A stretch of DNA of 39,496 nucleotides, taken from sequence record OM355495.1. One strand, given 5' to 3'. The translations under genes and the position numbers were made by a program. The notes beneath the pieces were generated by a model. It ran no database searches and was not told where the DNA came from. It was given only the letters and a program-made list of their open reading frames with translations. The DNA is from Escherichia phage ZH4. Positions within the stretch are counted from its first letter, which is position 1; every line of letters begins with the position of its first letter. Below, in pieces: positions 34,153 to 37,520 of this stretch.

Positions 34153-34345
34153 AGTTATATCCTCTCAAAGTTGTTTGTGTATGTTAGTGACTATCAGTCA
34201 GGGCCTTCAGATGTAGACTCAAAGACCCTGTAGTTAGTCGCTATCGGCGCACATTAAGAGTTTATCCAGATTATTAAAGAGCATTCGCGTTGGCTGTCGT
34301 CGCCGTGCTATCCCGTTTCAGTGTTGGGACTCACCGTTGTTTCGA

Positions 34346-34382
34346 TGTGGTACAGCTTACAGCTTTTAAAGGAGGCTGTCAA
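34346..34382 (-). promoter_or_regulatory. Host sigma70-type early promoter (T7 A3-like): -35 TTGACA, 17-nt spacer, -10 TAAGCT, then GTACCACATCGAAACAACGGTGAGTC
   Basis: Minus sense TTGACAgcctcctttaaaagctgTAAGCTgtaccacatcgaaacaacggtgagtccc; the downstream segment closely resembles the T7 A3 initial transcribed region (GTACCACATGAAACGACAGTGAGTCA). Confidence 0.65.
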
Positions 34383-34494
34383 CCTGTTATTCTTTTATGC
34401 GATGAGTGACCGAATTCGACTCATGGCTAGTGCCTTATCCTTGGCTGGTCTCGGGCAGGTTTCTCGGTTCCTATCCCTACGCCATCTTGCTACG

Positions 34495-34530
34495 TGGTAC
34501 ATATTACTTTAAGTCGGTACATCTTGTCAA
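34495..34530 (-). promoter_or_regulatory. Host sigma70-type early promoter: -35 TTGACA, 18-nt spacer, -10 TAATAT, followed by GTACCAC
   Basis: Minus sense TTGACAagatgtaccgacttaaagTAATATgtaccacg, about 350 nt upstream of the Ocr gene; near-consensus hexamers. Confidence 0.7.
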
Positions 34531-34779
34531 CTACTTTCTGTCATCTGCCTGTTTTTCGTATGACTTATCAGGCTGTCTACTTGACCGGGATGACCCGGCG
34601 TCTTCACTATCCGGTTGTTGCCGTGTCGTGTTGACGGAAGCTATTAAGCCACAATCTAGGACTGTAGTCAATAGTTAATTTGAAATAATATTGATTAAGC
34701 TATCGTCGGCCCATGGTGACTAAGATGATATAGTCTTTGACTAACATGTCTTTGACCTTAAGTCTATATCTTTATGTCT

Positions 34780-35270
34780 ATTAACTGTAGGTCTCTGACT
34801 GTAGGTAATGGCTTTACCGACGGTCTGTGACTGTAGGTTGTTGGACTGTAGGTTGTTGGACTTATGGTTATACAGATAAAGACTCGGAGACAGACCAATA
34901 GTCCCAACCTATCGTCTCCACCTCCACCGATAGTCATGACCTATCGTTGACAAAAGGTATTGACAGCCGGTCCAACCTTATGATATACTGAAGGTAGGGC
35001 CACCCTTGGTCTGGACTGAAAGAGGGCCTGCGGGGGAGACTTGAGGTTCTTGAACTATGAGATGTGGTCTCAAACTTTTGGTCCAAAACTCATCGTCACT
35101 ACTGCAGTCCACAGCCACTGTAGGTCAAGGACCGTAGGTCAGGCGACACTAGGATAGACCAATAAGTAGGATGACCCTAAGTGAGCTTCTATTAAGGTGT
35201 TACCTAAAGTCCTTGACTACAGTAGCTAAGGTCAGTAGAGTAGCGTCAGCTATGAACTGACCTTAGGTCT
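34780..35270. repeat. Repeat-rich non-coding region containing the predicted physical genome ends and collapsed terminal repeat (ACCTACAG / GACCTTAGGTC-type short repeats)
   Basis: No credible ORFs. Multiple CTGTAGGT/CCGTAGGT copies and GACCTTAAGTC-like palindromes. Lies between gene 19.5 (right end) and the early promoters (left end), analogous to the T7 terminal-repeat-proximal CCTAAAG arrays. Confidence 0.5.
34947..34990 (+). promoter_or_regulatory. Sigma70-like promoter on the opposite (plus) strand: tandem TTGACA boxes, 18-nt spacer, -10 TATACT
   Basis: Plus sense cgTTGACAaaaggtatTGACAgccggtccaaccttatgaTATACTg, inside the terminal region and pointing away from the early genes. No downstream ORF. 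Confidence 0.4.
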
Positions 35271-35299
35271 TCCGCTCATGAATCGTTACCATGATTGCG

Positions 35300-35458
35300 T
35301 TAATTACACTGAGACACCAGAGAACATACGAGAGTCTCGACCCACCCGACCCACTGACTTCCAGCAGTAACGCCAGCAGTAAGTAGAACAGCAGCAAGAA
35401 ACCTGTATGTAGCTCGATTGGTCGCCAGAGCTTTAAGTACAGCTTTGGTCTTTGCCAT
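35300..35458 (-). CDS. gp19.5-like small protein, 52 aa
   Basis: Own translation MAKTKAVLKALATNRATYRFLAAVLLTAGVTAGSQWVGWVETLVCSLVSQCN; the TYRFL.. hydrophobic core resembles what I recall of T7 gp19.5; lies downstream of the right-end promoter as in T7. Below track cutoff. Confidence 0.45.
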   Translation of the reverse strand: MAKTKAVLKALATNRATYRFLAAVLLTAGVTAGSQWVGWVETLVCSLVSQCN

Positions 35459-35639
35459 ATGCTACATACCTCCTGTATCTATGGTCGGTGACTATCTGTA
35501 TTGGAGGGATTATGATTAATATCACCCTCCTTCCATCGGTGCAAGCCTTAGGTAAGAACTCGGAGTCTGCCTCCTAAGGTCTTGCATAAAGTCTGCATAT
35601 GTATATTCACTACAGTAATACTATAAGTAACCGGGGGGT

Positions 35640-35662
35640 CTTCCCTATAGTGATAGTTAAGT
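35640..35662 (-). promoter_or_regulatory. Phage RNAP promoter (phiOR-like) downstream of terminase, minus sense CTTAACTATCACTATAGGGAAGA, +1 near 35645
   Basis: Consensus copy about 95 nt after the large terminase stop, preceding the 19.5-like ORF and the genome end region. Confidence 0.8.
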
Positions 35663-35756
35663 CCAAACTCCTTGTAAAACAGTAGGTTAGACTGGTAGTA
35701 ACTATAGGTTACTAACCGCGTATTCATGCAGCTTTCACCCATAGTTATTCATTCAG

Positions 35757-37520
35757 CTAGTGGAACGTAACGTAGGACCCTAGTCCCAGCTCGTCGTCTG
35801 TATCGTGAGTTACCCTGACCCCATTGTCCCAGAACTCAGTGTGTATTGACTCGAAGCCTTTCCGTGGGTTCTCCATCTGTTCCTCAAGCCACTCCTCAGT
35901 GACTTCACGTTCTCCTTTGTTGGCATCCTTAGCCATGGACTCAACGAAGAACTGTACACCGATAGCCAGCGCATCAAGTCGGTCATCATGTGCCAAGGCT
36001 CCACGTTCACGAGATATACGTGTCATCTGGTAGAAGAGAGAGTAGATAGGGTTACGAACACCATCCTTATCAGCGGCTGACTGGTAGTCTTGGACGATAG
36101 CAGCAGCGTTAACGATAAGTCTGTGAGACCCCATGATAGGCTCCAGAACGTCACAGATGCGGAGTTCTTTCTGACCCTTACTCTTCACTTCAGTTACAGC
36201 AGCAGGATGGATACGGGCCGCTACAGGCTTGAATAACTCAAGGTACATACCATCACCGAAGTTACCCTCAATGACGTATTCGTTGACCTTCCACTTACGA
36301 CCAATCTTAGCCAAGGCTTCCAGCGTAGAGTCTTCATAACCACCACGCATGCCACCAACTTCCATAGCGAAGATGTAGCCGTTGAGTTGATACAGTACCG
36401 CATAACCAGTTTCATCCTTACCACGACCACTAGGGTCAATGACCAGAATCTTCTGGGTGTATGAGCTGAACGCAGAACCTACAGTCTGATACGTGTGGTA
36501 CGAGTCACCCATGAGTCCAACGTTAGGAACGTCCTCACGCTTGTTCTGAGGGTTCGGCAACCATTGGTAGACCATTGGACTGGACGCTGGGTCCAAGTCT
36601 GCTACGATAAGGTCACGGAGCTTCAGAGGGTACTTCTCTGCATCACTCAGGTTCGGGTTAAGCATGAACTGTAGAGCGAAGCCAGCTTTACCGTAAGATA
36701 ACTCACGTTCCTTAAGGTCCGTATCATCGAAGCGTACTTCATCAGTCGGACGCCAGTAGAAGGACTCAGGGTCCTCTTCCAGCTCTGCTTGAAGCATAGG
36801 AGCCAGACGGTCGCCGTAAGACTGCCAGTCCTTCCTGTCGCGTGGATAACGAGCCGGCCAGATAGTAGTGGTATACCCACGACCTTCAAGCTCACGATAC
36901 AGGGTCATCTCGTTCTGAGGAGTACCCAGATAGATTATTGTACCTCCAGGCTTAAGGATAGCGTCGAACTCTTTCACAAGCTCTGACAGACGGTCTCGCG
37001 CAGCCTGAGTAGCAGAGTTGTTAGGAACCTCCACGTCATCGGCAATCAGGATGTCAGCACGACTACCAGTCAACTGACCAGTGATACCAACGGACTTAAC
37101 AGAAGGTGAGTGGTCTGGCTTGGCTGGCCCAACGTCGAAGCTAATAACCGCATCTCGCTGTCCCTGCTTAGGTTTGAGTTCCTGAAGCTGAGGCATTAGG
37201 TCGATGATTCGCTTGATGAAGATGGAGTTAGCATCAGCTCGTTCCTTTGAGGCCGACACAATCATGAACTTCAAGTCTGGGTTGTTCCATAGTTTCCAGA
37301 CCACGAAGGCACACGTAATGAAGGACTTCCCGATACCACGGAACGCCTGTAGGATGAAACGCCTGTTGTCCCCAGCGGAGAGCTTACGAGCCATATCTAT
37401 CTGGCATCTAGTCGGGACTGGTAGTGACAGAGCTTTCCACAGGACGAACAGGAAGAACACGAAGTCTGCCTTCATACGGGCAGTCATTAGCGCCTGACGC
37501 GCCACTAAGTCTTTACTCAA
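35757..37520 (-). CDS. Terminase large subunit / DNA maturase B (T7 gp19 homolog), 587 aa
   Basis: Near-identical blocks with T7 gp19 ([167 protein letters not shown]). Confidence 0.98.

Follow-up and report, generated by a model that had tools for sequence, protein, structure and literature searches.

The terminal repeat of Escherichia phage ZH4 probably carries a genuine promoter for the host RNA polymerase, of the A0 type annotated in phages of the T7 group, and one that is probably non-essential. Judged by its sequence, the element would be a sigma70 promoter of the extended -10 class that lies inside the direct terminal repeat (DTR) and faces outward. In particular, E. coli sigma70 holoenzyme would recognise TTGACA, an 18-nt spacer and TGaTATACT, initiation would occur at about position 34996 of the window (the whole stretch of DNA that was analysed, 39,496 nt), and after 67 nt the polymerase would run off the end of the DNA, yielding a short non-coding RNA. 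In T7-family phages the left end of the genome enters the cell first, so of all binding sites for RNA polymerase this one would arrive first. Transcription from copies of the promoter at the right-hand end and at concatemer junctions would enter genes 19.5 and 19 in the antisense direction. The block would have been inherited with a K1F-type terminal repeat, and a few private A/T substitutions would have brought it near to consensus in this genome. We infer initiation by the polymerase at this site, its exact start and its lack of function; the element most likely has little or no essential role.

The probable promoter and its place in the genome

The features on which the analysis turns are listed here by their positions in the window.

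~34383-34355, - strand: a further early promoter
34501-34530, - strand: rightward early host promoter, TTGACA-18-TAATAT followed by GTACCAC, homologous to the early-promoter region of T7 and K1F
34872-34878, - strand: TATCTGT junction element, directly after the repeat
34879-35062, no strand: DTR of ~184 bp, present as a single copy in the collapsed assembly and delimited by alignment with K1F
34947-34952, + strand: upstream TTGACA box, beginning 13 nt ahead of the first base of the -35 hexamer
34960-34965, + strand: -35 hexamer TTGACA, matching the consensus at 6/6 positions
34966-34983, + strand: spacer of 18 nt, containing TG at 34981-34982
34981-34989, + strand: extended -10 element, TG, A and TATACT, with TATACT at 34984-34989
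34996-35062, + strand: predicted run-off RNA of the left-end copy, 67 nt, its start placed by the spacing from the -10 element and its end by the K1F alignment
Ending at 35063, - strand: unique right end, ...GAGACCACA, placed by the K1F alignment
35300-35458, - strand: 52-aa ORF at the gene 19.5 position, with homologous 159-nt coding sequences annotated in relatives
35757-37520, - strand: gene 19

The + strand of the window reads TTGACAAAAGGTATTGACAGCCGGTCCAACCTTATGATATACTG at positions 34947-34990. Within it the sequence TATACT matches TATAAT at five of six positions, with T-12, A-11 and T-7 all present, and in a scan against the sigma70 consensus the site as a whole scored 11/12 with the TG of an extended -10. 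The -35, the -10, a spacer of 17 +/- 1 nt and the TGn motif that characterize the extended -10 subclass of sigma70 promoters are all found here. (Note that a spacer of 18 nt is suboptimal.) These findings bear out the original prediction of a near-consensus sigma70 promoter with tandem TTGACA boxes, an 18-nt spacer and TATACT. From the spacing to the -10, the predicted start is A34996 or G34997. The AAAA tract at 34952-34955, which continues from the upstream TTGACA box, would occupy roughly -44 to -41 and is similar to a proximal UP subsite. (We also considered the upstream TTGACA box, at 34947-34952, as a separate promoter and rejected it, as it has no -10 element at 16-18 nt.)

A scan of both strands of the whole window identified this site as the only one scoring at least 11/12. 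When the window was shuffled with dinucleotide composition preserved (n = 200), the mean number of sites scoring at least 11/12 was 0.295, and 25% of the shuffles contained one or more; the mean for sites that also carried the TG was 0.05. Chance occurrence somewhere in the genome is moderately unlikely, and the place of the site in the small non-coding end region (~1.2 kb) makes it still less likely.

The window is from a T7-family phage with all of its long genes on the - strand, and its end region is ~92% identical to that of Kayfunavirus (K1F-like) phages. Alignment with K1F (NC_007456) puts the physical left end at position 35062 read on the - strand (TCTCATAG...), which corresponds to the first base of K1F (TCTCACAG...), and the unique right end of K1F (...GAGACCACA) corresponds to the window from 35063 upward. 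In the K1F record itself, a prefix-equals-suffix match gives a DTR of 178 bp followed by TATCTGT. Moreover, the records of many relatives start or end exactly at the homologous stretch and hold two copies of it, and in EcoDS1, SH5 and Ro45lw this stretch is annotated as a terminal repeat; roughly 230 Kayfunavirus repeats were located. The TATCTGT element has homologues in EcoDS1, BA14 and 13a, where they carry the annotation "concatemeric junction", and another in ATCTGTT of T7. As a Kayfunavirus assembly, the window is circularly permuted, and it holds both copies of the repeat collapsed into a single concatemer-junction-like copy; what appears as a "terminal region" in the window is that collapsed junction.

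The promoter is located entirely within the DTR, with its -35 hexamer 98-103 nt and A34996 67 nt from the left end. Because it is inside the DTR, there should be two copies of it in virion DNA and one per concatemer junction. The right-hand copy, and the copy in concatemers, faces the 19.5 ORF and then gene 19. (Note that the label 19.5 is given by position; no gene of that name occurs in the relatives' records examined.) The original prediction had placed the site in a terminal region, opposite to all genes and pointing toward the genome end. Its orientation stands, since the K1F alignment puts the real left end at 35062; what it missed, as the same alignment makes clear, is that the site lies in the DTR and that the right-hand copy faces genes 19.5 and 19. 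On the - strand, the site at 34501-34530 is the putative gene-sense counterpart, one that would serve early transcription.

Variation of the block among relatives

Terminal repeats were collected from IMG/VR, from metagenomes and from phages in GenBank, giving 29 distinct sequences, 24 of them of a type that we call A. Type A is found in K1F, EcoDS1, SH3, CR44b, yong1, Monomax and the window, and type B in Ro45lw, SH5, ST1, PRF-SP1 and P7124. Repeats of type A (K1F, EcoDS1, SH3, CR44b, ZG49 and others) carry a homologous block, TTGAC(C/A)-18-TGaTAGACT, at the same position as in the window, with the -35 ~98 nt from the end. At the extended -10 these relatives read TGATAGACT; at the -35, TTGACC is the commonest hexamer and TTGACA also occurs; and at the position of the upstream box they read TTGACT or TTGACC. 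Their sites score 9-10/12 as compared with 11/12 for the window, whose form, TTGACA with TGATATACT, is the stronger. (Note that the block is not annotated as a promoter in the records of K1F and EcoDS1; the host promoters given in the expert annotation of EcoDS1 number three and are all rightward.)

The block is not uniformly maintained. TTGAC(C/A)-18-TGnTAGACT is intact in 16 of the 24 distinct type-A repeats; the window, with TATACT, likewise has both elements and brings the number to 17. In the other seven of the 24, the -35 or the -10 is degraded, or the -10 is deleted. Weakened or lost -35 hexamers comprise TTTACA (twice), TCGACC, TTAACC, TCTACC and CCCACC (once each) and CTGACC, the last in Mt1B1_P3, which also has a T-12-to-C change in its -10; in vB_Aba_01KA, TTGACC is kept and CCTTATGATAGACTG is cleanly deleted, with loss of the -10. 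The type-B Kayfunavirus repeats have no such site and carry a TAGACC-GAA-GGTCTA hairpin instead. The relatives that lack a -10 or a -35 appear to argue against any essential role for the element, and the deletion in vB_Aba_01KA in particular argues against an absolute requirement for it in packaging.

Against this background, the near-consensus TATACT of the window appears to be a private allele of a block that is family-wide. The G-to-T difference at 34986, which turns TAGACT into TATACT, is private to the window. At 34952-34954 the window has AAA where the nearest repeats (yong1, Monomax, SH3 and L026) have TTG or CTG, and it is this AAA that creates both the upstream TTGACA box and the A-tract; at 34991-34992 the window has AA where the nearest repeats have G or GG, making the discriminator richer in A. 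All of these private changes in the promoter region (34952-34954, 34986 and 34991-34992) are toward A/T and toward consensus. They do not cluster in the promoter to a significant extent, given that they account for six of ~11 private positions but represent only ~3 mutational events. (A few further private changes occur elsewhere in the window's repeat.) A megablast search of positions 34935-35015 against 50,697 phage records returned nothing above 87.7% identity, and when IMG/VR was scanned for an exact 15-mer, the 32 matches were due to chance and unrelated, with no K1F-like repeat carrying CCTTATGATATACTG among them.

Conservation within the repeats gave no sign of purifying selection on the hexamers. 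Across the 29 distinct repeats, mean column identity was 0.76 for the -35, 0.86 for the -10, 0.81 for the spacer and 0.95 for the downstream 65 nt, a rough comparison given that five of the repeats are not of type A and that the downstream segment holds the 19-mer used to fetch most of the loci. By this measure (29 repeats, 24 of type A) the hexamers showed no excess of conservation over their flanks. Thus no purifying selection is visible on the element as a promoter, which would seem to be dispensable in some viable phages.

These observations bear on whether the block works as a promoter at all. The promoter look could be a by-product of repeat motifs, with no meaningful transcription in vivo. 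The sequence would then be kept for functions of the repeat (concatemer processing, terminase recognition or end formation), and its TTGAC/GTCAAC boxes, together with TA-containing units of the (T)GACnnTAGG type, would read as -35 and -10 elements only in the leftward direction. Hexamers no better conserved than their flanks, and several viable phages without a -35 or a -10, are what such a reading would lead one to expect. Moreover, a 14-nt block, CCTTATGATAGACT, which includes non-promoter bases, showed no difference among the first 18 type-A repeats other than the G-to-T change in the window, and in the larger set only four of the 24 type-A repeats depart from it. TTGAC/GTCAAC boxes ~11-13 nt apart also recur in T7, in T3 and in type-B repeats, where they have other orientations and form no promoter; at the adjacent spot, type-B repeats, T7 and T3 have a C(UUCG)G hairpin, the 3' arm of which, with the bases that follow (GGTCTAGGGGTAGGGCC), aligns with type-A TAGACTGGGGTAGGGCC. 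In most genomes, too, shuffles of the end region yield leftward sites more often than rightward ones. Against a purely incidental resemblance stands the strength of the site in the window: a score of 11/12 with the TG, the upstream A-tract and the spacing of T7 A2 make binding and opening by sigma70 holoenzyme in vitro almost certain by prediction from general promoter rules, regardless of what the sequence was selected for. Furthermore, A0 of T7 is annotated as an E. coli promoter with a score of just 8/12, and the private changes of the window in and around the promoter run toward A/T and toward consensus without exception. We therefore consider incidental resemblance rather unlikely, though deserving of serious consideration, and continue to favor a genuine host promoter.

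The predicted transcript and roles proposed for it

No credible ORF follows the promoter on the + strand, as had been claimed from the sequence. The ORFs on the + strand downstream of it are all of 38 aa or fewer and spurious (one of them spans the physical end), and a hidden downstream ORF was rejected as a candidate product. The original prediction also entertained a small RNA and a role in priming replication, and neither idea fared well. A search of Rfam over positions 34300-35800 gave no match at E-values up to 1, and neither the 67-nt run-off transcript (z = +0.40) nor a 145-nt read-through transcript (z = -0.66) folded better than its shuffles; on the basis of this null result and of fold energies at the level of shuffles, a small or structured RNA was rejected. 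With respect to replication, the secondary origins of T7 (phiOL and phiOR) consist of a promoter for the phage RNA polymerase followed by an AT-rich stretch. The core of the phage promoter, TCACTATAGGGA, was absent from positions 34879-35062 when up to two mismatches were allowed, its nearest occurrence being at 35642-35653 on the - strand, and the 67 nt downstream of the start are not AT-rich. None of the special roles proposed, replication priming, packaging or a small RNA, is supported; with respect to packaging, what the sequence shows is the position of the element, within the repeat and 83-112 nt from TATCTGT.

A regulatory role might still be sought in the other copies of the promoter. 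Transcription from the right-hand copy, or from concatemers, could tune late expression by producing a small structured RNA or an RNA antisense to 19.5 and 19. No intrinsic terminator was predicted on the + strand between 34997 and ~37800 in the joined configuration, so that transcription, once begun, would cross the 19.5 ORF and gene 19. In T7, however, the right end is the last to enter the cell and concatemers are formed later than the shut-off of the host polymerase, and this timing argues against such an RNA, as do the want of an Rfam match or of excess structure and the dispensability of the promoter in relatives. We regard regulation by an antisense or structured RNA as highly improbable. 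If the site is an A0-type host promoter, as we favor, little antisense transcription of 19.5 and 19 is to be expected, since the right-end and concatemer copies arise while the host polymerase is being shut off by gp0.7 and gp2 (PMC3709561).

Outward promoters in the T7 group

Eleven genomes were surveyed over their leftmost 300 nt. Leftward sites scoring at least 9/12 were present in T3, phiYeO3-12, K1F, EcoDS1, yong1, BA14 and the window, and rightward sites with such a score were found in none of the 11. Among shuffles of the same 300 nt, 9-31% had at least one leftward site and 4-32% at least one rightward site at this threshold. The site in BA14 (a Berlinvirus) is an unannotated leftward TTGACA-17-TACCAT within the repeat, 97 nt from the end.

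Such recurrence raises the possibility that the host polymerase does something useful when it occupies an outward promoter in the repeat. In one version of this idea, the polymerase would cap or occupy the leading end until the anti-RecBCD and anti-restriction proteins have been made. In another, it would form a head-on roadblock at concatemer junctions, such that phage polymerase coming from phiOR would pause near the junction element and the terminase would be recruited. A leftward host-type promoter in or near the left repeat occurs in at least four divergent lineages (T7/13a, T3/phiYeO3-12, Kayfunavirus of type A, and BA14), with rightward promoters absent from the leftmost 300 nt, and the distance from the -35 to the end is 97 nt in BA14 and 98 nt in K1F-type repeats even though the sequences are unrelated. 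For the roadblock version there is the proximity of the TATCTGT element, ~80-120 nt from the promoter, and gp18 and gp19 are believed to be recruited when the host polymerase makes T7 RNA polymerase pause (PMC3709561). Nonetheless, the argument is purely inferential: the lineages are few and not independent, with a chance rate of 0.1-0.3 per genome; several viable relatives have lost the element or have it in degraded form, and type-B repeats lack it; and the host polymerase is inhibited late, at the time of packaging. We consider a function of this sort quite improbable. That the outward promoter is a selected, recurrent module of the T7 group, of which the product is polymerase occupancy rather than RNA and of which the window has a strong allele, we regard as a long shot; in that event occupancy could shield the first-entering end from exonucleases and end sensors, or could serve as the roadblock at the junction. 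Were outward end promoters of the T7 group under selection, the purpose of A0 would become testable, and this genome would offer a naturally strong allele for experiments on end protection and packaging.

An ordinary A0-type host promoter, the reading that we prefer, has several annotated precedents. The original prediction was unsure of any T7 equivalent, a doubt that the records dispel: a leftward A0 is annotated in T7, 13a, T3 and phiYeO3-12. In T7 (NC_001604), "E. coli promoter A0 (leftward)" is at nt 224, outside the terminal repeat, and in 13a (NC_011045) "A0" is at 249-284 on the minus strand, again outside the terminal repeat (1-170). In T3 (NC_003298), "E. coli promoter A0 (leftward)" has its -35 at 145-150, inside the repeat (1-231), and the "putative host promoter A0" of phiYeO3-12 (NC_001271) is in the same place as in T3 and inside the repeat (1-232).

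The sites of T7 and 13a resemble that of the window in being of sigma70 type, in lying near the left end opposite to all genes and facing the end of the DNA, and in being upstream of phiOL and A1-A3 with no gene downstream. The window site likewise has the layout of A0, in that it faces the left end from the non-coding strand and lies between this end and phiOL/A1. Unlike the window site, A0 of T7 and of 13a is outside the repeat, among short CCTAAAG-type repeats, with the -35 ~259 and 284 nt from the end, respectively. Each is also weaker: A0 of T7 is TTGACT-17-TAGGCT and that of 13a TTGACT-18-TAGTCT, each scoring 8/12 without a TG, as compared with 11/12 and a TG in the window. No alignable homology of the window site with A0 of T7 or 13a was found, and a six-genome MAFFT alignment did not place the window hexamers on those of T7 or T3. 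The relation of the window site to the annotated A0 promoters may, on sequence grounds, be one of analogy rather than orthology. (Note that the T7 and 13a annotations record no function for A0, and that a search of full-text literature turned up no study of what A0 does, nor any that maps transcription start sites in T7 or K1F.) A0 of T7 is said to have been mapped in vitro by Dunn and Studier in 1983; to our knowledge its purpose has never been explained.

The sites of T3 and phiYeO3-12 are closer to the window site in placement, being leftward and inside the DTR and hence at both genome ends. The sole sequence that they share with it is the -35 context, GGTATTGAC. The hexamers annotated as A0 are 13 nt apart in T3 and 20 nt apart in phiYeO3-12, and given these spacings the annotations are only putative; both phages can also be read as GGTATTGACT-18-TATCCT, with the 18-nt spacing of the window and a score of 9/12 at best, versus 11/12 with a TG. 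Their -35 is 145-150 nt from the end as compared with 98-103 nt in the window, and T3 has, between the promoter and a conserved GGGTAGGGCC block, a C(UUCG)G hairpin that the window lacks.

Promoters A1-A3 of the T7 group are of the same class as the window site, and A2 of T7, an established strong promoter that reads GGTATTGACA-18 nt-TAAGAT, has the same upstream context and spacer length. Unlike the window site, A1-A3 are rightward and face genes; they drive early expression and power genome entry, whereas the window site faces the opposite way onto 67 nt of template. The value of these findings is mainly for annotation: they point to a probable leftward host promoter of the A0 type within the terminal repeat of K1F-like phages, a feature that the K1F and EcoDS1 records omit. 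Host-type promoters that face outward from within the left repeat, or from beside it, recur in the T7 group and have been annotated there before, and the element in the window is the Kayfunavirus representative of this known A0 kind, ordinary rather than new.

Sigma70-like sites in the window

Sigma70-like sites scoring at least 10/12 were fewer than expected across the whole window (2 observed; dinucleotide shuffles averaged 4.9), and both of them are located in the non-coding end region. A second leftward site and two rightward early host promoters of the window are as follows:

35213-35241, plus strand: second leftward promoter-like site, TTGACT-17-TAGAGT (9/12)
34530-34501, minus strand: rightward early host promoter, TTGACA-18-TAATAT, followed by GTACCAC
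about 34383-34355, minus strand: rightward early host promoter, TTGACA-17-TAAGCT, followed by GTACCAC

The TTGACT-17-TAGAGT site lies within the unique right-end region, with the 19.5 ORF on one side and the terminal repeat on the other, and its sequence is also present at the right end of K1F. With respect to the early promoters, K1F (about 590-620) differs from the window in that a deletion of ~150 nt merges the two into one.

Hairpin and repeated elements of the terminal repeats

The terminal repeats of T7, T3, phiYeO3-12, type-B Kayfunavirus (one of two classes of repeat in this genus) and Bas105 have in common a hairpin on the gene-sense strand, with a C(UUCG)G-type loop and with stems that differ between these phages in a mutually compensating manner:

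T7, 66-82, gene-sense strand: GTCAACCTTCGGTTGAC
T3 (about 78-94) and phiYeO3-12, gene-sense strand: TTAACCTTCGGTTAA
Type-B Kayfunavirus (Ro45lw), terminal repeat, gene-sense strand: TAGACCTTCGGTCTA
Bas105, terminal repeat, gene-sense strand: TAGACCTTTGGTCTA

The C(UUCG)G-type hairpin is absent from the type-A repeats, including that of the window (34879-35062); the TGaTAGACT block of type-A repeats adjoins the spot where the other repeats carry it.

Three further elements lie within or beside the window's terminal repeat:

34872-34878, minus strand: TATCTGT, directly after the terminal repeat
34894-34947, plus strand: 22-nt unit (ACCAATAGTCCCAACCTATCGT / ACCGATAGTCATGACCTATCGT), repeated every 32 nt within the terminal repeat
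34781-34869, plus strand: short GACTGTAGGT(TGTTG)-type repeats forming an array, just inward of the terminal repeat

TATCTGT matches the ATCTGTT of T7 (nt 161-167) as well as the sequence that the EcoDS1, BA14 and 13a records label 'concatemeric junction'. The GACTGTAGGT(TGTTG)-type array is the counterpart of the short T7 repeats that come after the left repeat. Because some relatives have three copies of the 22-nt unit, terminal-repeat length varies with copy number.

Leftward sites in other phages

The hexamers annotated as A0, the leftward E. coli promoter near the left end, are TTGACT and TAGGCT separated by 13 nt in T3 (NC_003298, 126-150), and TTGACT and TCCTAT separated by 20 nt in phiYeO3-12 (119-150). 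In both phages TATCCT, which lies between the annotated hexamers, is a better-spaced -10 (18 nt). Two leftward sigma70-like sites are missing from the expert annotation of BA14 and EcoDS1, one in each genome:

BA14, inside the terminal repeat, about 68-97 nt from the left end: TTGACA-17-TACCAT
EcoDS1, about nt 229-257, just outside the terminal repeat: TTGACT-17-TAGGCT

The BA14 site is at the same distance from the genome end as the K1F-type site, and that of EcoDS1 is identical to T7 A0 in hexamers and spacing.
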